Shown here in pieces: positions 1,780-55,794 of a DNA stretch of 64,000 nucleotides. Within the stretch, counting starts at the first letter, position 1. Each line of letters begins with the position of its first letter. Under the pieces are notes generated by a model, which was not told the origin of the DNA, ran no database searches, and worked only from the letters and a program-made list of their open reading frames with translations. Source of the stretch: Nitrospirota bacterium (lineage in GTDB: Bacteria; Nitrospirota; Thermodesulfovibrionia; Thermodesulfovibrionales; JdFR-85); assembly GCA_015492645.1 (NCBI GenBank), contig WGER01000068.1, forward strand, positions 23,605-87,604, read 5' to 3'. A program made the translations under genes and the position numbers.

Positions 1780-1847
1780 AGACTGACTCTCCAGAGTTGC
1801 CGCTTATTGTAGTTTTTGACCAAAAGTCTAACGGTAAAGTCGGGGCT
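1780..1847 (+). repeat. Intergenic mosaic repeat, locus A (right part of M2 region + M3 module)
   Basis: GAGTTGCCGCTTATTGTAGTTTTTGACCAAAAGTCTAACGGTAAAGTCGGGGCT aligns with 29424-29480 (GAGTTCCTGCTGCCCACTGTAGTTTTGACCGAAAGCCTAACGACAAATCTGGGACC) and with 8195-8227. Confidence 0.7.
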
Positions 1848-1882
1848 AATAGTGTAGTTTGTGCAAACACCCCGTTTCAGGT

Positions 1883-1888
1883 TAAAAT
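1883..1888 (+). promoter_or_regulatory. Putative -10 box upstream of rluB (near-leaderless)
   Basis: TAAAAT at 1883-1888, 9 nt before ATG 1898. No Shine-Dalgarno sequence. The -35 is weak (TTGTGC around 1859). Confidence 0.35.
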
Positions 1889-8107: not shown

Positions 8108-8227
8108 TGCCTAAATTGCCGTTAGAATCTTTCGGTAAGGGTCCCAGGAAAGTCGGAGATTTTTCTGGGCAGGACCCCCAGCCACCTTTTATGTCTTTTG
8201 ACCAAAGTCTAACGGCAGTCTGGGACC
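8108..8227. repeat. Intergenic mosaic repeat, locus B part 1 (inverted M3 - M2 hairpin - M3)
   Basis: CTAAATTGCCGTTAGAATCTTTCGGTAAG (8111-8139) is the inverted complement of the M3 core TTGACCAAAGTCTAACGGCAGT (8198-8219). Between them lies the M2 hairpin CCCAGGAAAGTCGGAGATTTTTCTGGG (8143-8169). Confidence 0.75.
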
Positions 8228-8270
8228 TAACCCCAAATCCGAATTTGACTGAAGTTCAAAATGTTTTCCT

Positions 8271-8413
8271 CTGTCAGGGCAACTTGCCTCAGAACTGAAT
8301 TAATGCGATAGGATTTTATTAAGATCAGGGCTCATCGCATTCAGTTTATGGATGAAGGCTATACATCCGGTCTTACGCACTGGTGGTATCGCTGAATTCA
8401 GGTTCTTCGGCAA
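8271..8413 (+). repeat. Intergenic mosaic repeat, locus B part 2 (M4 - M1)
   Basis: M4 is GCCTCAGAACTGAATTAATGCGATAGGATTTTATTAAGATCAGG (8286-8329), with internal hairpin 8293-8309 / 8334-8346. M1 is CGCACTGGTGGTATCGCTGAATTCAGGTTCTTCGGC (from 8376). Confidence 0.7.
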
Positions 8414-8465
8414 GTTGTCCTGACACTGACTATGGTCAATTTAGGATTTTGGCTAATCCAAATCC

Positions 8466-8523: not shown

Positions 8524-9279
8524 GTGGCAGGCCACAGTAAATGGGCACAGATAAAGCATAAAAAGGCGATTGTAGATGCAAGAAAGGGAAAACTCTTCTC
8601 AAAACTGGCAAAGGAGATATCTGTAGCAGCCCGCCTTGGTGGTGGTGATCCATCCATGAATCCCCGTCTCCGAACCGCAATCGAAAAGGCGAAAGATGCG
8701 AATATGCCGCAGGACAACATCAGGAGGGCGATCCAGAAGGGGACAGGGGAATTGCCAGGTGCATCCTATGAAGAGGTGTATTACGAGGGCTATGGACCCG
8801 GAGGTGTGGCCCTCATGATTCATGCCCTTACTGACAACAAGAACAGGACAGTGGCAGAACTGAGACATATACTCAGCAAACACGGAGGAAACCTCGGAGA
8901 GGCGGGTTGTGTCTCGTGGATATTTGAGAAGAAGGGGTATATCCTCGTTAGTAAGGAGAGTATAGATGAAGATAGCCTGATGGGTATTGTTATTGAGGCA
9001 GGTGCAGAGGACCTCCGGTCAGACCCGAGGGAAGATAACTACGAGGTCATAACCTCGGTAGAAGAGTTTCATAATGTGAAGGAGGCCATTGAGAGAGCGG
9101 GGATAAGGCCCGTCAGTGCAGAGATAACGATGCTGCCAAAGACAGTGGTAAGGATAGAGGGAGATGTGGCTGAGAGGATGTTGAGATTAATGGACGCCCT
9201 CGAAGAACATGATGATGTCCAGAATGTCTATGCAAACTTTGATATACCAGAAGAGGTCATGGCCAAGGCAGGGGCATGA
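8524..9279 (+). CDS. yebC: YebC/PmpR family DNA-binding transcriptional regulator
   Basis: [31 protein letters not shown] is the canonical YebC N-terminus. I prefer GTG at 8524 with GAAGGAGGG 5-6 nt upstream; the track start at 8509 adds 5 atypical residues. Confidence 0.9.
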
Positions 9280-27243: not shown

Positions 27244-28185
27244 TTATTCTCTGTAGATACATTCCTCGGGCCTTTTGTCACTCCTGAGCCCGAGGAAGAC
27301 AGGTGCCCTCAGTTTTCCAGACTCGGTCCACTCCATGGCTGTCACCCTTACCACTGTATCGGGTATTACCCATCTCACCCCTGAGGGATGCTCAAATAAG
27401 GGGACCCCTGTCTCCTTTTCTCTGAGTATCTCTATAATCTCTCTCCTCTCCTTCTCAGTAAAGCCTGTGCCAACCTGGCCGATATGGACAAGTGTACTGT
27501 TCCTGTAAAGGCCCAACACAAGGGAAGCAAAGGGCCTCTTCTCTGAGTCGATCCATCCGCAGACAACAGCGTCTATATCGATCGTCTTCTTTATCTTAAG
27601 CCAGGAGCGTGACCTCACACCTGGCTGGTATAGACTCCTTCTCTCCTTTGCCATGATCCCTTCAAAGCCCCTCTTTACAGCCTCTCTAAAGAGGGGTATC
27701 CCCTCTCTGTAGGTCCTTGAGATGATGATATGTTCACCCTCCCTCACCAGTTCCTCAAGCAGTCTCCTCCTTTCCATCAGGGGCCTTTTGAAGAGTCTCT
27801 CCTGTCTGAAGTAGAGTATATCAAAAACGATATACATGGCAGGAGACAGCCTTGAGAGGATGGATATCCTGTGCGGGTCAGTGATGTGCTCCCTCCTCTG
27901 GAGAGTCTTAAAATCAGGTACACCTTCCTTTAACATCACAATCTCTCCATCCAGTATGACATCCTCTCCATCAACTGCCTTAGCAAGGGAACCAAACTCG
28001 GGATACCTGTAAGTGATATCCAGAAGTCTCCGGTTCTGAAGCCTTACATTGCTACCCTGGATATAGGCTATACACCTTGTGCCGTCCCATTTGAGTTCAT
28101 AGAGGAATTCTTCAGAGTCCAAGGGTTCCTTAGCCTTTTCTGCAAGCATGGGTTTTATAGGCCAGCATTTAAAGGGCGAGGCCAT
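27244..28185 (-). CDS. ligD: ATP-dependent DNA ligase, LigD ligase domain only (no polymerase or phosphoesterase domains)
   Basis: Adenylation motif I YELKWDGTRCIAY (KxDG). Also GEIVML, EGIMAK, WLKIK, and a C-terminal OB-fold region. 313 aa. It lies directly downstream of ku. Confidence 0.85.
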   Translation of the reverse strand: MASPFKCWPIKPMLAEKAKEPLDSEEFLYELKWDGTRCIAYIQGSNVRLQNRRLLDITYRYPEFGSLAKAVDGEDVILDGEIVMLKEGVPDFKTLQRREHITDPHRISILSRLSPAMYIVFDILYFRQERLFKRPLMERRRLLEELVREGEHIIISRTYREGIPLFREAVKRGFEGIMAKERRSLYQPGVRSRSWLKIKKTIDIDAVVCGWIDSEKRPFASLVLGLYRNSTLVHIGQVGTGFTEKERREIIEILREKETGVPLFEHPSGVRWVIPDTVVRVTAMEWTESGKLRAPVFLGLRSDKRPEECIYRE

Positions 28186-28193
28186 TGACTGGA

Positions 28194-28988
28194 TTATCCA
28201 GCAGTCTTTCTTTTCCGGGTCTTTGGCTCTGTTACAGAGAGACTCTTCTTCAATGCCTCCATGAGACTCACAACCCTTTCGGCCTCTCTTGCTGGTTTTA
28301 CCTTCACCTCTCCACCGCTTATCTTCTGATTGATCAATTCCATCAGGGCCTCAGTGGACCTGTCGTGATACTCTGAGATATCAAAACGTGCAGAAAATCT
28401 CTCCACCAGTTCCTCTGCAAGGGCGAGGGCCTCCTTGCTCACCTCCATCTCTTCCGGTATGGTGATAAAGTCTGTACTTGCGATCTCGTTGGCGAAGTGG
28501 AGTGTATGGATTGCGAGGACCTTCTGATAGGGTCTGAGAATACCTATATGTTCTTTCCCCCTCATGGCAAACCTCAGGAGCCCGACTCTTCTCTTGTTCT
28601 GAAGGGCCTTCTTCAGCAACAGATATGCCTCAAGGCCATCCTTCTCAGGAGCGAGATAGTAGGTGCTATCAAAATAGACAGGATCAATCTCCTCTAAGGG
28701 TACAAAAGAGATTATCCTGATCGCCCTGCTTTCTTCCCGGAAGAGGGACTCCAGTTCCTCATCAGAGATGATCACGTATCTGTCCTTTTCATATTCATAA
28801 CCGTGGGTCACATCGGACCACTCTACCTCTTTCTGGCAGGTGGGGCAGTACCTCTCATATTTCAGATGAGTGGAGCAGGCCTTATGCAGTAGATGCAGCG
28901 GGACCCCTCTCTTTCTGACGGCAGAGTAGAGTTTTACAGGCACAGAAAGCAGGGCTACTGATAGATTCCCCTTCCACAGGGCCTTCAT
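28194..28988 (-). CDS. ku: Ku protein (non-homologous end joining)
   Basis: ALWKGNLSVALLSVPVKLYSAV...YERYCPTCQKEV...GYEYEKDRYVIISDEELE is the typical bacterial Ku core. The C-terminal tail is basic. Confidence 0.9.
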   Translation of the reverse strand: MKALWKGNLSVALLSVPVKLYSAVRKRGVPLHLLHKACSTHLKYERYCPTCQKEVEWSDVTHGYEYEKDRYVIISDEELESLFREESRAIRIISFVPLEEIDPVYFDSTYYLAPEKDGLEAYLLLKKALQNKRRVGLLRFAMRGKEHIGILRPYQKVLAIHTLHFANEIASTDFITIPEEMEVSKEALALAEELVERFSARFDISEYHDRSTEALMELINQKISGGEVKVKPAREAERVVSLMEALKKSLSVTEPKTRKRKTAG

Positions 28989-29035: not shown

Positions 29036-29217
29036 TGGCCATGGCACTTGTGGTGTCACTGAACAGATTGGTTCTGGCCACTGAATTATCAAATGAGTGA
29101 AACACTCGTAATTTTTCTGCAGGAGCCTCTCTGTCCCACAAAGTCTCTGATTTGGAGGGGGATCCCCTGCCGCCTTCCAAAGTTTTGCTTGAATCCTTTC
29201 GGTAATATGGAGGGACC
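29036..29217 (+). repeat. Intergenic mosaic repeat, locus C part 1 (M1 copy followed by degenerate modules)
   Basis: GCCATGGCACTTGTGGTGTCACTGAA (29038-29063) matches 29347-29372 at 25 of 26 positions, 309 nt apart. Downstream fragments (AATTTTTCTGCAGGAGCC, GAATCCTTTCGGTAATATGGAGGGACC) resemble the M1 tail and inverted M3 of locus B. Confidence 0.7.
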
Positions 29218-29480
29218 GGACCGTAGATTGCCGTTAGAAATGTGTGCTTTTGCGGCAGGGACTGCCTCAAAACATGATTTATGCGACAATTTTAATCAAA
29301 AGATTTCAGCCTTTTTTCACCTAATAGGTGAAACGTCATTACATTTGCCATGGCACTTGTGGTGTCGCTGAAATTCTGATTTTTCGGCAGGGGTTCCCAG
29401 GAAAATCGTGGATTTTCCTGGGCTGAGTTCCTGCTGCCCACTGTAGTTTTGACCGAAAGCCTAACGACAAATCTGGGACC
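29218..29480 (+). repeat. Intergenic mosaic repeat, locus C part 2: most complete cassette (inverted M3 - M4 - M1 - M2 - M3)
   Basis: Inverted M3 at 29223-29257. M4 at 29264-29311, sharing the 18-nt identity AACATGATTTATGCGACA with 48136-48153. M1 at 29347-29390. M2 is a perfect 10-bp hairpin, CCCAGGAAAATCGTGGATTTTCCTGGG, at 29396-29422. M3 at 29446-29480. Confidence 0.8.
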
Positions 29481-29493
29481 GGATATATTTGTT

Positions 29494-29521
29494 TTGGAAG
29501 ACAGTGGTTTTAGTGTATAAT
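29494..29521 (+). promoter_or_regulatory. Putative promoter of nrdJ-pdxJ-acpS-nnr operon (leaderless)
   Basis: TTGGAA (29494-29499) - 16 nt - TATAAT (29516-29521) - 5 nt - ATG 29527. No Shine-Dalgarno sequence. Confidence 0.45.
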
Positions 29522-44558: not shown

Positions 44559-44564
44559 AGAAAT

Positions 44565-44570
44565 ATTATA
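44565..44570 (-). promoter_or_regulatory. Putative -10 box of mutS operon (leaderless)
   Basis: Minus strand reads TATAAT (44570-44565), 6 nt before ATG 44558. No Shine-Dalgarno sequence. Confidence 0.4.
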
Positions 44571-44582
44571 ACTGAAGGTTCA

Positions 44583-44645
44583 GTAGAAAGTCGCCCTGGG
44601 TTAAAGCCGGATTTTGCCGTTAGGAATGACTGTTTTTACCACGGG
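44583..44645 (-). repeat. Intergenic mosaic repeat, locus E (partial, inverted M3) in the mutS/acn divergent region
   Basis: GGATTTTGCCGTTAGGAATGACTGTTTTTACCAC (44609-44642) aligns with inverted M3 copies at 8111-8139 and 29223-29257 (core TTGCCGTTAGAA). Confidence 0.55.
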
Positions 44646-44673
44646 TTCTTGCCGTCCTTAGATTCCTTTGAGG

Positions 44674-44679
44674 TATAAT
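44674..44679 (+). promoter_or_regulatory. Putative -10 box of aconitase-ADH operon (leadered)
   Basis: TATAAT at 44674-44679. The leader of about 25 nt contains AAGGAGG (44701-44707) before ATG 44712. Confidence 0.4.
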
Positions 44680-44711
44680 TCTCTTAGAGCCAGATTGTTA
44701 AAGGAGGAGTA

Positions 44712-47868: not shown

Positions 47869-47943
47869 TGGCTGGGGCGGGAGGATTCGAACCTCCAAAT
47901 GGGAGATCCAAAGTCTCCTGCCTTACCCTTTGGCTACGCCCCA
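47869..47943 (-). tRNA. tRNA-Gln (anticodon UUG), CCA encoded
   Basis: The reverse complement reads TGGGGCGTAGCCAAAGGGTAAGGCAGGAGACTTTGGATCTCCCATTTGGAGGTTCGAATCCTCCCGCCCCAGCCA. The acceptor stem is TGGGGCG/CGCCCCA. The anticodon stem-loop is GGAGA-CTTTGGA-TCTCC. The T-arm is GGAGGTTCGAATCCTCC. The U1-A72 pair is typical of bacterial tRNA-Gln. Confidence 0.9.
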
Positions 47944-47961: not shown

Positions 47962-48119
47962 CAGAGAAATACCCTGAGTGTAACCTCACGAAAGGTTCTT
48001 CTTCAATTTGGTTGGTTTCAGAAAAGGTATTTTTGATTACAAAGTTGTGAAATATTCAATCTTTAACTTGGAATTCCCCGTGCTCATGCCACTGGGATGA
48101 AATGCTGTAATAACCACCA

Positions 48120-48347
48120 GGCCGCCCTGCTTCAGAACATGATTTATGCGACAGATTTTATCCATAAAAAGTCCAATGTCTTATCAGGTAGTGTTGAAGG
48201 TTATTATTTTGTCAGAGGCACTGTCGGTGTCGCTGAAATCCCTGATTTTTCAGCAGGGCGGCCTATCCTAATTTTTCAGGAAAAGATACCTCGTGGTCTT
48301 GCCACAGGGTAGTCCATTTGACCAAAATTCTACTCGCAATTAGGGAT
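48120..48347 (+). repeat. Intergenic mosaic repeat, locus D (M4 - M1 - degenerate M2 - M3)
   Basis: M4 is GCTTCAGAACATGATTTATGCGACAGATTTTATCC (from 48129). M1 is AGGCACTGTCGGTGTCGCTGAAATCCCTGATTTTTCAGCAGGG (48216-48258), containing hairpin GCTGAAA/TTTCAGC. M3 is CATTTGACCAAAATTCTACTCGCAATTAGGGAT (48315-48347). Confidence 0.75.
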
Positions 48348-48380
48348 ATTTTATGGAGTGGGTCAGAAAGGCGAGAGGTT

Positions 48381-48389
48381 TGATATAAT
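48381..48389 (+). promoter_or_regulatory. Putative extended -10 promoter of trkA operon (near-leaderless)
   Basis: TGATATAAT at 48381-48389, 8 nt before ATG 48398. No Shine-Dalgarno sequence. It is the same nonamer as the tRNA-Gln promoter. Confidence 0.5.
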
Positions 48390-48397
48390 CATTACCT

Positions 48398-49744
48398 ATG
48401 AGGGTGATCATAATAGGCGCAGGAGAGGTGGGTTATCATCTGGCGAGGTTCCTCTCCAGGGAGAGGGATGTAGAGGTGGTTGTGGTTGACACTGACAGCC
48501 AGAAACTGAGGAGGATCAGTGAAGAGATGGATATTGCCACCATAGAGGGTGAGGGTGGTTCGCCTGAGGTCCTGAGGGAGGCAGGTGCAGATGATGCCGA
48601 TATACTGCTGGCTGTGACAAACAGTGATGAGACGAACATGATCGCCTGTCTTGTTGCGAAGGCCCTCTTCAATGTAAAGAGAAAGATCGCCAGGATAAGG
48701 AACCGAGAGTACTATACAAACCAGAAGTTGCTTTCACCAGAGAATCTCGATATAAACCCGGCCATAAATCCCGAGTATGAGAGTGCAAAGGCGATACTCA
48801 GGTTGATAGATGTCCCCTTCGCATACGATGTGGAGGAGTTTGAGAATGGTCAGATCAAGGTGCTCGGGCTTAAGGTTGAGGAGGACTCGATAATAACGGG
48901 CAGGAGTCTGAGGGAGTTCCGTGAGAAGACAAAGGAGAATCTATTAATAGGGATAATACAGAGGGAGGACAGGGCGATCATACCAAGGGGTGATGACAGG
49001 GTGAAAATGGGTGACATCATCTACCTGCCTGTACACAAAGATGATGTGGAGAGGGTGGGTGCATTCCTTACCAAGGGACCCAAGGTGGTGAGGAAACTAA
49101 TGATTGTGGGTGGTGGGAGGATAGGCTTTACCGTGGCATCAGAACTGCAGGGTAGAGATATAACGGTAAAATTGATAGAGAAGGATCCTGAAAGGTGTAA
49201 GTACATATCCAAGAGGCTCAAGAACATTATAGTCCTTCAGGGTGATGGCTCAGACAGGGGTCTTCTGGAGGAAGAAAACATCCGGGACATGGACCTGTTT
49301 GTTGCCCTCAGTAACAATGAAGAACTGAACATCATGTCCTCGCTGCTTGCAAAGAGGCTTGGTGTAAAGAAGGTAATAACCCTGGTAAACAGGACGGACT
49401 ACATCACCCTTGCCAACAACCTGGGCATTGAGGTCGTTATCAGTCCGAGGCTCATCACTGCCAGCAGGATACTCAGATATGTGAGGAGGGGAGATATACT
49501 GAGTCTGACTGCTATCGCTGAGGACATGGCGGAGATCATTGAGGCTAAGGTGGCTGGGGGCTCCAGGTTTGTGGGTAGACCTCTGAAGGATGTCGGTCTA
49601 CCAAGGGATGCCCTGGTAGGGGCGATAGTGAGAGGGATGGAGGTCATAATCCCTGGTGGTGAAGATGCGGTAAGACCAGAGGATCGTCTCATAATCTTTA
49701 CCCTCAGGGAGGCGATCAAGGCGGTGGAAGAGTTTCTCCTATGA
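48398..49744 (+). CDS. trkA: Trk potassium uptake system NAD-binding subunit (tandem RCK domains)
   Basis: MRVIIIGAGEVGYHLARFL, and a second Rossmann fold at LMIVGGGRIGFTVA. 448 aa. Confidence 0.9.
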   Translation: MRVIIIGAGEVGYHLARFLSRERDVEVVVVDTDSQKLRRISEEMDIATIEGEGGSPEVLREAGADDADILLAVTNSDETNMIACLVAKALFNVKRKIARIRNREYYTNQKLLSPENLDINPAINPEYESAKAILRLIDVPFAYDVEEFENGQIKVLGLKVEEDSIITGRSLREFREKTKENLLIGIIQREDRAIIPRGDDRVKMGDIIYLPVHKDDVERVGAFLTKGPKVVRKLMIVGGGRIGFTVASELQGRDITVKLIEKDPERCKYISKRLKNIIVLQGDGSDRGLLEEENIRDMDLFVALSNNEELNIMSSLLAKRLGVKKVITLVNRTDYITLANNLGIEVVISPRLITASRILRYVRRGDILSLTAIAEDMAEIIEAKVAGGSRFVGRPLKDVGLPRDALVGAIVRGMEVIIPGGEDAVRPEDRLIIFTLREAIKAVEEFLL

Positions 49745-53187: not shown

Positions 53188-54461
53188 GGAGACTTCGGAG
53201 ATGGCTTTTAATACTCTCGCTTCCTTTAATTGCGATTGTTGTCGCCTATGTGGTCTATAAACTCTTTCTTGTTCCTCCTCCAAAGGTGACAGGAACAGAG
53301 GCCTTTGTGACCCTTGGAAGAGAAAAGACCGTCACATTAAAGGGAGAGAACATCAAAAGGATAGAGATAGCCCTGGTTCAGGGTTCCAAGAGGGTGAGTA
53401 TCCTGAGGGACTCACCAAGAAAGGGAGAGGTTACCTATGAGTTAAGGATCAGACCAAAAGACCTCGGGCTTATGGACGCCCCGGCCAGGGTGATTGTGGA
53501 TGCCTCTTCAGGGATATTGAAGAAGGTCCACATGGAGATTGACACTGTAATTGACACTGTCCCGCCACAAATGGATGTCCTCGATGCACCGGGAGTGGTA
53601 AGTACAGGAGAGGCGGCAGTGGTGACACTTCAGGTGAAGGGTGCCTCTGATGTAAACCTCTGGTTGGGGGAAATGGGGTTCAGGGCCTTTCCTGTTGGTG
53701 AGGACAGATATGTGTGCATATTCCCTGTACCCCACAACACAGGGACAGATACCACAATATACGCTGCTGCAGAGGACGATGCCGGAAACAGGACCGTGAG
53801 GTCTCTGAATATAAGGATAAGGCGGAAGAACTATCGGGTGTCCACCATCACAATAGATGATGAATTCATGCAGAGGGTTGTCTATCCATTGCTCGGAAAG
53901 ATGAACTCTGATGATCCGGTCAGGGATTTCAAAGAGGTGAACGAGGTCTGGAGACAGAGGGATATCCAGAGGCTCAGACAGATAGGTGCCAAGAGTACCT
54001 CAGAGAGGCTCTGGAGAGGGAGGTTCCTGCAGATGCAGAACAGCAAGGTGATGGCAAGGTATGGAGACATGAGATATTACAGATACAGAGGTGAGGTGAT
54101 AAGCAGCAGCGTCCACCTCGGTTATGACCTCGCATCTGTGAAGGCTGCCCCTGTGGAGGCAGCCAACAGGGGCAGGGTGGTCTTTGCAGGCACCCTCGGC
54201 ATATATGGCAATACCGTAATTATTGATCACGGCCTCGGTGTGATGAGCCTGTATGGACATCTCTCCAGGATTATGGTGAAGGAGGGCGAGGAAGTGGAAA
54301 GGGGTAGCATAGTGGGAAGAACGGGGGCGACTGGTTTTGCAGGAGGAGATCACCTCCATTTCGGAATCCTTGTACAGGGTGTCGAGGTCTCACCCCTTTA
54401 CTGGTGGGACAAGAGGTGGCTTAAACAGAGGATTGTTGATAGACTCAGAGATGTTACTTGA
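53184..54461 (+). CDS. Membrane-anchored M23 family metallopeptidase
   Basis: N-terminal TM segment LLILSLPLIAIVVAYVVYKLF. The C-terminal LytM domain has HLGYDLAS, GNTVIIDHGLGVMSLYGHLS and GATGFAGGDHLHFGI (HxxxD ... HxH). Confidence 0.8.
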   Translation: MRRLRRWLLILSLPLIAIVVAYVVYKLFLVPPPKVTGTEAFVTLGREKTVTLKGENIKRIEIALVQGSKRVSILRDSPRKGEVTYELRIRPKDLGLMDAPARVIVDASSGILKKVHMEIDTVIDTVPPQMDVLDAPGVVSTGEAAVVTLQVKGASDVNLWLGEMGFRAFPVGEDRYVCIFPVPHNTGTDTTIYAAAEDDAGNRTVRSLNIRIRRKNYRVSTITIDDEFMQRVVYPLLGKMNSDDPVRDFKEVNEVWRQRDIQRLRQIGAKSTSERLWRGRFLQMQNSKVMARYGDMRYYRYRGEVISSSVHLGYDLASVKAAPVEAANRGRVVFAGTLGIYGNTVIIDHGLGVMSLYGHLSRIMVKEGEEVERGSIVGRTGATGFAGGDHLHFGILVQGVEVSPLYWWDKRWLKQRIVDRLRDVT

Positions 54462-55794
54462 TACTGATGCCGTAGGCCCTTATCTTTCTATGGAGGTTGC
54501 TCCTCTCAATCTGCAGGACCTCTGCAGTCTTGCTTATATTGAAGTTATTCTCCTGGAGTTTTTTTATAATGTAATCCCTTTCAAAGGCCTCCTTCGCCTC
54601 CTTCAGCGTTGGTATTGAGAAGTAGTCCTTTTTGCCGAGTTCGTAAAAGGTGATGTCTTTATCAGTAATGGTATCACCGGGTGTCATTATCACCATCCTC
54701 TCTATAATGTTTTTCAGTTCCCTTACATTTCCAGGCCAGTCGTATTCCTGTAACACCTTCAGGGCCCTTTCAGTGATGCCCTTCTTCGGCCTGCCGTGTT
54801 CACGGGATATCTCTTCCAGGAAGAAGTCCACCAGCATAGGGATGTCCTCCTTTCTCTCCCTCAGAGGAGGAACATGAAGTGGTATCACATTCAGTCTGTA
54901 ATAGAGGTCTTCTCTGAACCTTCCTTCTTTCACCTCCTCCCGGAGGTCTTTATTTGTTGCTGCTATTATCCTCACATCAACCTTGATGTTCTTACTACCA
55001 CCCACCCTCTGGAACTCCTGTGTCTCGATCACCCTGAGGACCTTCGCCTGTGTCTGTAGAGACATGTCACCTACTTCGTCCAGAAAGAGGGTTCCGCTGT
55101 TTGCCAGTTCAAACTTCCCCTTTTTCCTCTCATATGCACCTGTGAAGGAACCCTTCTCGTGGCCAAAGAGTTCACTCTCTATCAACTCCTGGGGTATGGC
55201 AGCACAGTTCACCTCAACAAATGGGCCCTTAGCCCTCGGAGATTTTTCATGGATGAGCCTTGCCACCAGTTCCTTGCCCACTCCACTTTCACCGGTAATC
55301 AGCACCCTGCTTGAACTGAGTGCCACGGCCTCTATCTGTTTCTTGAGGACCTTAATAGGGTCTGATTCACCGACCAGTTGCCACCTGCCCTTGAGGTCCC
55401 TCCTGAGGGCCTGGAACTGTCTCTCTAAGGTCCCCCTCTCCAGTGCCCTCTGGGTGGTGAGCAGGACCCTCTCTAAGGAGAGGGGTTTTTCAAGAAAATC
55501 ATAGGCCCCCAGTTTTGTCGCCTTTACTGCCTGCTCTATAGTGCCATGGCCTGAGATTATAACCACCGGTATATCAGGCCTCTTCGCCTTGATCTCTTCC
55601 AGGACCTCGATACCGTCTCTATCAGGCAGCCAGATGTCAAGAAACACTATATCCGGTGAGTACTCCTCGATGAGGCCCATGGCCTCTCTTGCATCAGGGG
55701 CCTTCAGGACCTCGTAGCCCTCGTCCTCAAGGATATCACCCAGGCTCTTCCTTATACCCTCCTCATCGTCCACTATCAGAACTGTATAGGCCAT
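54454..55794 (-). CDS. ntrX: Sigma-54-dependent response regulator (REC - AAA+ - HTH), NtrX/NtrC-like
   Basis: REC domain VLIVDDEEGIR...DIVFLDIWLPDRDG. AAA+ region [22 protein letters not shown] loop variant GSFTGA, and ESELFGHEKG. There is a C-terminal Fis-type HTH. Confidence 0.88.
   Translation of the reverse strand: MAYTVLIVDDEEGIRKSLGDILEDEGYEVLKAPDAREAMGLIEEYSPDIVFLDIWLPDRDGIEVLEEIKAKRPDIPVVIISGHGTIEQAVKATKLGAYDFLEKPLSLERVLLTTQRALERGTLERQFQALRRDLKGRWQLVGESDPIKVLKKQIEAVALSSSRVLITGESGVGKELVARLIHEKSPRAKGPFVEVNCAAIPQELIESELFGHEKGSFTGAYERKKGKFELANSGTLFLDEVGDMSLQTQAKVLRVIETQEFQRVGGSKNIKVDVRIIAATNKDLREEVKEGRFREDLYYRLNVIPLHVPPLRERKEDIPMLVDFFLEEISREHGRPKKGITERALKVLQEYDWPGNVRELKNIIERMVIMTPGDTITDKDITFYELGKKDYFSIPTLKEAKEAFERDYIIKKLQENNFNISKTAEVLQIERSNLHRKIRAYGISIK

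Follow-up and report, generated by a model that had tools for sequence, protein, structure and literature searches.

The 64,000-nt stretch of contig WGER01000068.1 analysed here (hereafter the window; Nitrospirota bacterium, assembly GCA_015492645.1) raises the question of why one short repeat, M3, lies almost equally far from the start codons of three different genes. The TTGACC core of M3 is found at 1816, 29449 and 48318, which is 82, 78 and 80 nt upstream of the ATGs of rluB (1898, encoding an RluB-type pseudouridine synthase), nrdJ (29527, encoding a class II ribonucleotide reductase) and trkA (48398), respectively. A sequence-only reading of this DNA proposed that M3 and its companion modules M0 and M1 make up a single portable cassette that includes a promoter or control region and abuts the coding start. 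These distances were confirmed, as were those of the GGCAC core of M1, which lies at 29352 and 48217, 175 nt before nrdJ and 181 nt before trkA. At yebC the claimed M1 distance of 148 nt holds (8376 to a GTG at 8524), but the motif there is CGCAC and not GGCAC. Compared with shuffled sequence, the M1 pattern has 4 matches (0.10 expected), the M3 core 3 (0.33 expected) and the 3′ half of M3 8 (1.47 expected), and nhmmer recovers four M3 copies with E-values of 1e-9 to 1e-6. The results below resolve the cassette into a mosaic of two foldback elements, X and Y, both non-coding and belonging to one Nitrospirota clade (Thermodesulfovibrionia-like metagenome-assembled genomes, MAGs). The explanation that we favour, with moderate confidence, is that X and Y are foldback repeats resembling miniature inverted-repeat transposable elements (MITEs) or REPINs and abut the genes' own core promoters, and the earlier interpretation is partly supported.

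The cassette was resolved by comparing the four intergenic regions with the window using blastn and by inverted-repeat searches. Keeping the module names already in use, we define X as M0 plus M1, and Y as arm A, hairpin H and M3 together (Table 1). X is an irregular long hairpin of about 155 nt in which M0 pairs with M1. Y is a foldback of about 120 nt whose inverted arms, A and M3, enclose the short perfect hairpin H; the arm unit is approximately TGTAGTT-TTTGACC-AAAG-TCTAACGGCAA, and the terminal inverted repeats are at least 17 nt long. In the yebC copy, arm A is the reverse complement of M3 (inverted repeat 8110-8126/8208-8224), and nhmmer finds M3 on both strands. The M3 of this copy (8190-8233; 8196), which has a 1-nt deletion and lies about 326 nt from yebC, had been missed. 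M3 is also present as its reverse complement (arm A; matches at 8110-8138 and 29218-29250), as the half-arm at 8428-8439 and, before mutS, as a partial copy. Within M3 the palindrome is limited to GAC-N5-GTC. TGTAGTT precedes TTTGACC in three of the four plus-strand M3 copies and is also found in arms at loci L038, L008 and L123 of other genomes.

The order of the modules differs between loci. At nrdJ, X is nested in Y, with arm A before it and H and then M3 after it, and the composite (29216-29480) folds with its outer arms paired (z = -4.2). At trkA the order is X-H-M3 without arm A. At yebC, Y and X stand side by side, M3 preceding M0/M1 in the reverse of the order at the other two loci; the 5′ half of M3 (8198-8209) and its complement (8428-8439) bracket X. 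M3 stands alone at rluB, and mutS has the 3′ half of M3. H has a homologue at 8142-8170 and a degenerate counterpart at about 48271-48300. The modules are therefore two separable elements rather than one portable cassette, and the nested versus side-by-side order, the solo M1 fragment, the solo M3 and the half M3 are signs of mosaic assembly or decay. A 9-nt sequence, GGGACCGGA, is present on both sides of the nrdJ composite, though its GGGAC is also part of the M3 consensus, and no target-site duplication was seen at yebC.

X extends beyond this genome. A model of X, R1, was built from nine aligned copies from three genomes; it scores these source copies at 116-141 bits, high scores being expected for them, and finds exactly three X copies in the window. 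A scan of a genome collection with a short M1 pattern, most of whose matches are due to chance, gave five real X loci in two Nitrospirota MAGs, WFTX01 (L008, L017, L038 and L078) and MTOU01 (L025). A metagenome scan with a gapped M0..M1 pattern gave two loci in one genome and added the X copy L117. Pattern matches in viral contigs were due to chance, and R1 found no X in them. Over about 150 kb of related loci, R1 found no X beyond its source copies and a weak, diverged tandem copy (L078:7341-7513, 26 bits). This second hairpin element has the closing stem GGGAGGCGG/CCGCCTCCC and lies just upstream of the L078 X copy, between an RND-type transporter gene and an old-yellow-enzyme-type gene. The M3-like outer arms are likewise found in other genomes: WFTX01 has TGTAGTTATTTTGAGACC and its complement, the L038 composite folds as a single 230-nt hairpin with the outer arms around X, and an M3-like module follows X in L117. 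Since M3-like arms enclose X in other genomes too, the nested composite is old, and only its positions change. The genome sequence surveyed amounts to about 78 kb (the 64-kb window plus L125 and L127), and no further repeat copies were found in the 8 kb added to the left and the 6.5 kb added to the right of the window. The window is 99.98% identical to contig JALUQK010000135 of GCA_027053865.1. Our literature search gave no paper that ties Thermodesulfovibrio or Nitrospirae to repeats of the X/Y type.

The orthologous loci of relatives show where the repeats are absent. Upstream of nrdJ, three relatives (L112, L114 and L115; NrdJ 82-85% identical) have a rodZ-like gene, 76-93 nt and then nrdJ, without a cassette; upstream of nrdJ in the window are a Ku/ATP-dependent ligase gene pair and 540 nt of repeats. 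In the two relatives compared at trkA (L118 and L120; TrkA 83-84% identical), 90-110 nt separate trkA from upstream genes that are different. In L123 and L124 the RACo-like gene is followed by thyX or a type II secretion gene where the window has the cassette and yebC. Neither X nor Y was detected at the cassette-free nrdJ and trkA loci of the relatives. At rluB, L124 (RluB 81% identical) has a clear M3 homologue at the same 82-nt distance from the gene (alignment score 27 against the window copy, reached by none of 300 shuffles), and L123 (RluB 87% identical) has a rearranged Y-like hairpin. The repeats are thus polymorphic for presence, being absent at nrdJ and trkA in relatives and present, or present as a remnant, at rluB. 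By this orthologue comparison, the repeat family is old, and the copies at nrdJ, trkA and yebC are lineage-specific and located at synteny breakpoints.

Several neighbouring features were noted at these loci. The Ku gene (28194-28988) and the ATP-dependent DNA ligase gene (27244-28185), both on the minus strand, form a non-homologous end-joining pair adjoining the nrdJ cassette, and the start of the Ku gene (28988, minus strand) has the solo M1 fragment some 50 nt upstream. The trkA X copy is preceded, at a distance of 175 nt, by a tRNA-Gln gene (anticodon TTG; 47869-47943) on the opposite, minus strand, and the gene upstream of trkA differs in every relative genome examined. In the closest relative, GTTTGAAY is repeated four times in tandem upstream of nrdJ (L112:6740-6785), and a heptamer, CTAACGG, lies 52 nt before the ATG. 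The L124 contig breaks off inside the M3-containing repeat region, 127 nt before rluB (L124:1-127), with GGCACT just before; this end is consistent with assembly breakage by these repeats.

We next consider the promoters of the downstream genes. No Shine-Dalgarno sequence was found at the rluB, nrdJ, trkA or mutS starts (yebC, uvrD, acn and others carry GGAGG), and a -10 hexamer ends 5-9 nt before each ATG, so that these four mRNAs are probably leaderless or nearly so. The -10 hexamers of rluB, trkA and mutS were picked by eye, and the automatic promoter scan gave a full -35/-10 pair at nrdJ alone. Like mutS (44559-44711), a glycosyltransferase gene (ATG 1738, minus strand; 1738-1775) has a -10 hexamer 6-7 nt before its ATG and no Shine-Dalgarno sequence, and leaderless starts seem common among operon-first genes in the window. 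The public annotation starts RluB 11 codons downstream (230 aa, P0241); since its homologues have 241-253 aa and the ATG at 1898 is conserved (1898-1930), the annotated start is probably too short.

The promoters do not support a cassette that carries one. The 12-nt TGATATAATCAT at trkA is identical at all 12 positions in the cassette-free relatives, as is the start region (TGATATAATCAT..ATGAGG), so the trkA promoter is native and is not delivered by the element. The proximal 40 nt of rluB are conserved in L123. The loosely similar GGTT..TATAAT strings that the sequence-only reading noted before the ATG are -10 hexamers. The 33-35 nt from M3 to the -10 have no significant similarity among the window loci, and the -35 regions are unrelated as well. 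Promoter scans found no -35/-10 pair inside M3 that is common to the copies, and no promoter consensus inside M3 in more than one copy. Because the spacers are unrelated, no promoter consensus is shared inside M3 and the trkA -10 is native, the element carries no common promoter. Nor does it abut the coding start, from which it is separated by about 45-50 nt of promoter DNA outside the repeat. Beside the trkA M3, the relatives' 14-nt TTTTTGACCCACTC (L120:1825-1838; L118) is found in the window only as its reverse complement, at the same 11 nt from TGATATAAT, and the segment 48353-48372 is a small local inversion beside the M3 end.

What remains of the control-region idea is the position of M3 relative to the promoters. 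TTGACC lies 67 nt (rluB), 67 nt (nrdJ) and 66 nt (trkA) from the -10, which is tighter than its distance to the ATG; CTAACG lies 55, 55 and 54 nt from the -10, with a matching 53 nt for the half-copy at mutS; and about 12 nt separate the end of M3 from the -35 region. The distance of about 80 nt from M3 to the ATG thus arises because TTGACC is 66-67 nt before the -10 and the -10 is just before the ATG. In the relatives, the gap from the upstream gene to the ATG is 76-110 nt, of which about 45 nt are core promoter, and the room for insertion is therefore limited. We estimate the chance of three or four matches within 1-2 nt, taking a uniform 30-45 nt range, at about 1e-3 or less, and neither chance nor limited intergenic room easily explains the spacing. 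This constancy supports a weaker version of the sequence-only reading, in which M3 may be a positioned upstream site or a product of promoter-edge targeting. The rule is local and not universal, since three of the seven CTAACGGCA-type sites are off this spacing relative to the nearest same-strand downstream start (8125 minus, 8209 plus and 29237 minus; two A arms and the yebC M3), and the spacing is 60 nt in L117, about 49 nt in L038 and 12 nt longer in L123.

Table 1. Repeat modules and promoter elements identified in the window.
Feature	Coordinates	Strand	Details
rluB M3, without X or H	1806..1850	+	nhmmer; homologous copy in L124
rluB -10 TAAAAT	1883..1888	+	ends 9 nt before ATG; read by eye
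Y, intact copy (yebC)	8110..8233	+	A 8110-8138, H 8139-8177, M3 8190-8233; fold z = -3.1
X, yebC copy, downstream of Y, not nested	8271..8427	+	R1 126 bits; fold z = -6.0
Reverse-complement copy of M3 5′ half, GACTATGGTCAA	8428..8439	-	inverted repeat, 92% complementary
Solo X fragment (M1 part, 26 nt)	29038..29063	+	96% identical to 29347-29372; no full X by R1
Arm A, nrdJ composite (ATTGCCGTTAGA...GCTTTTGCGG)	29214..29257	-	pairs with M3 29440-29484
X, nrdJ copy, nested in Y	29249..29404	+	R1 116 bits; blastn module map
Hairpin H, nrdJ	29392..29428	+	perfect 12-bp stem CCCAGGAAAATC/GATTTTCCTGGG, 29396-29422
M3, nrdJ copy, forming the right arm and end of the composite	29440..29484	+	TTGACC 29449, CTAACG 29461; nhmmer E = 3e-9
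nrdJ promoter TTGGAA-16-TATAAT	29494..29521 (-10 29516-29521)	+	-10 ends 5 nt before ATG; automatic scan
mutS -10 TATAAT	44565..44570	-	6 nt before ATG 44558; read by eye
Partial M3, 3′ half CCTAACGGCAAAATCCGG, upstream of mutS	44607..44624	-	53 nt before mutS -10
X, trkA copy	48114..48270	+	R1 133 bits; RNA fold z = -4.8
M3, trkA copy, most diverged	48306..48350	+	TTGACC 48318; nhmmer E = 9e-7
Native trkA upstream segment, inverted relative to relatives (TTTCTGACCCACTC)	48353..48372	+	matches in reverse complement only
trkA extended -10 TGaTATAAT	48381..48389	+	ends 8 nt before ATG; read by eye

In the model that we favour, X and Y would be dispersed, presumably mobile elements, as their distribution suggests, and would have entered the nrdJ, trkA and yebC loci after this lineage separated from its nearest sequenced relatives. 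The downstream genes would use their own sigma-70-type promoters; the right end of Y (M3) adjoins the upstream edge of these core promoters. The constant spacing could then mean either that insertion is targeted to, or tolerated only at, the upstream edge of a promoter, or that M3 was secondarily put to use as an upstream promoter element. Several observations weigh against this model. The M3-to-(-10) spacing is tighter than passive insertion tolerance predicts, which argues for some functional or mechanistic link with the promoter. The rluB M3 is old and its position is kept in L124, unlike a recent insertion. The conserved core and covarying stems of X fit a functional RNA more than a decaying MITE. 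In addition, the -10 hexamers at rluB, trkA and mutS are manual assignments and the automatic scan confirmed only that of nrdJ; the proximal promoter of nrdJ itself has no detectable similarity to the upstream regions of the relatives. No transposase or RAYT was identified among the Pfam-annotated genes of the roughly 78 kb, from which the copy and distance data also come, nor was a target-site duplication established.

The same spacing can be read as the mark of a regulatory site. M3, chiefly its CTAACGGCAA half (about -66 to -47), would then be a positioned upstream promoter element, a site for a transcription factor or for the RNA polymerase alpha subunit that was spread by the repeat and co-regulates the leaderless rluB-aspS, nrdJ-pdxJ-acpS, trkAH and mutS. 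Class I activators and UP elements act in this zone of the upstream promoter, and M3 falls within it. The M3-to-(-10) spacing is constant despite unrelated spacers, the position upstream of rluB is kept in L124, and in L117 the M3-like module is followed by a strong TTGACA-18-TTAAAT promoter. We nevertheless regard this reading as unlikely: besides the deviating sites in the window, L117 and L038, close relatives run trkA and nrdJ without the site, the rluB copy of L123 is degenerate as well as 12 nt further away, the genes have no obvious common theme, and no candidate binding protein was identified. A bolder version, which we consider more doubtful still, holds that a mobile foldback element spread this upstream site and thereby wired rluB-aspS, nrdJ-pdxJ-acpS, trkAH and mutS into one regulon, and that X, its nested core, is a novel structured element, of RNA or single-strand DNA, that a conserved protein recognises.

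A different question is whether X is the essential part, as the member of a non-coding RNA gene family (a multi-copy small RNA, or a cis-acting RNA co-transcribed with its neighbours) to which the arms are incidental. X does form a genuine structured family. In the alignment of the nine copies, 28 base pairs are 91.6% paired, compared with 33-49% when the 3′ partners are slid; both sides have changed in 16 pairs, and the observed covariation score was reached by none of 500 shuffles (RNAalifold was also run). The cores GATTWATGCGAY and GCACTGNNGGTRTCGCTGAAWT are nearly invariant across genomes, and the central 75 nt have no structure shared by the nine copies. In the window the closing stems range from 5 to 17 bp and differ in sequence in each copy: at trkA, where M0 (48136-48153) pairs with M1 (48217-48240), a perfect 13-bp stem closes X (48119-48131/48252-48264); at nrdJ the stem is short (5 bp); and at yebC it is about 17 bp and unlike that of other copies (inverted repeat 8272-8310/8387-8425). 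Such stems of 12-17 bp, perfect or nearly so and differing in sequence between copy subfamilies, including all three window copies, speak for an RNA, as do the covariation and conserved core in three genomes, the significant folding energies at trkA and yebC, and an R1 score that is far higher on the forward strand than on the reverse. Seven of the nine copies precede a gene by 87-179 nt and share its orientation.

The context of X points in the opposite direction. Its neighbours are unrelated (yebC, nrdJ, trkA, an old-yellow-enzyme-type reductase gene, dnaJ in the dnaK-dnaJ gap, and a gene for a small membrane protein), and its positions are not orthologous between genomes. Because the L116 copy is antisense to both neighbours and the L008 copy lies between convergent genes, X is not a dedicated 5′ leader; the X copies of the window also lie upstream of the predicted promoters of the downstream genes, which together with the unrelated genes sets X apart from a cis-regulatory leader or riboswitch. 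No conserved promoter or terminator was found around X. The paired columns contain 11 G.U and 9 A.C cells out of 252, a neutral wobble asymmetry, and there is therefore no sign of folding on one strand only. In a scan against Rfam 15, only a tRNA passed its gathering score, matches with E-values up to 10 were at chance level, and none was found for X. Taken together, these results show that X is a conserved structured element, which may act as RNA, as single-stranded DNA or as a maintained palindrome, and we think it improbable that X constitutes an RNA gene family with incidental arms.

That a mobile cassette with an outward-facing promoter now drives rluB, nrdJ and trkA is very improbable: the distances are similar at all three loci and the nrdJ TTGGAA-16-TATAAT, which lacks detectable similarity to relatives, could have arrived with the cassette, but the native trkA -10 and start, the rluB promoter conserved in L123 where M3 is degenerate, the unrelated spacers, the lack of a -35/-10 pair common to the M3 copies and the place of the yebC elements, which precede a distinct TTGACA promoter and a start that has a Shine-Dalgarno sequence, all speak against it. 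Other candidates were rejected. A sigma-54 promoter in M1 (GGCAC...) was ruled out because the GG-N10-GC pattern is absent. The closing stems lack a following T-run, so that the idea of X having inserted into terminator hairpins was discarded too. For a hammerhead or other ribozyme core, a retron RNA or a TnpB/IscB guide RNA there is neither a defining feature nor an adjacent gene, and RNA pairing of the M3 TTGACC with the GGTT before the -10 was dismissed because it comprises only 4-6 bp and is absent at mutS. Elsewhere in the window, two genes for sigma-54-dependent response regulators (54454-55794 and 63035 onward) contain a direct repeat of 179 nt (54811-54989/63410-63588, 74% identical) and a repeat of 48 nt (55258-55305/63857-63904, 83% identical); these reflect paralogous genes and are not part of the cassette.

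Under the explanation that we favour, foldback repeats next to native core promoters, the gain is a defined pair of elements for use in these MAGs, X being described by a covariance model and M3 by a motif. X and Y can account for synteny breakpoints and broken assemblies in the MAGs, and they mark intergenic sequence that ought not to be interpreted as regulation of a particular gene. The 66-67 nt spacing to a leaderless -10 is the sole feature that goes beyond simple insertion; if it holds genome-wide, it would mean either promoter-edge targeting by a bacterial repeat or the repeat-borne spread of an upstream control site. To our knowledge, no repeat families have been described in the uncultured subsurface and hydrothermal Nitrospirota.

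The closest parallels are found in other phyla. In the REP/REPIN and BIME repeats of Proteobacteria, the repetitive extragenic palindromic (REP) unit has a 5′ GTAG and then an imperfect palindrome; its doublets form hairpins and are mobilised by RAYT (Y1) transposases, whose gene has the repeats on its flanks, and copies number tens to hundreds. Like these, M3 is a short intergenic unit found in both orientations, the inverted doublet of Y folds as one hairpin as in a REPIN, the modules combine as a mosaic whose pairing is kept by compensatory change, and GTAG stands at the outer end of many arms (in the TGTAGTT of three of the four plus-strand M3 copies and in the L038 and L123 arms). Unlike them, M3 is not a strong palindrome, the hairpins here enclose the larger conserved X, the host phylum is different and no RAYT was seen in the Pfam-annotated genes surveyed. 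Correia elements (NEMIS/CREE) of Neisseria and BOX elements of Streptococcus pneumoniae form stable stem-loops and lie beside promoters or contribute to them; Correia ends create promoters and carry integration host factor (IHF) sites, and terminal repeats with target duplication are typical. X and Y resemble both families in being small non-coding foldback or modular repeats (in the style of boxA-B-C) near gene starts; they differ in having no sequence similarity to them and, compared with Correia elements, in the native trkA -10 and in having no promoter within the element, a -35/-10 pair inside the repeat in all copies being what a portable promoter would show. With the structured RNAs of the Rfam type, X has in common a conserved core, covarying helices, significant folding energy and recurrence upstream of genes, and it differs from them in lacking an Rfam match, a consistent gene context, expression signals, wobble asymmetry and orthologous sites. 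Taken together, although no sequence relationship and no family-defining protein was identified, X and Y are in kind broadly comparable to the REPIN/BIME, BOX and Correia repeats.

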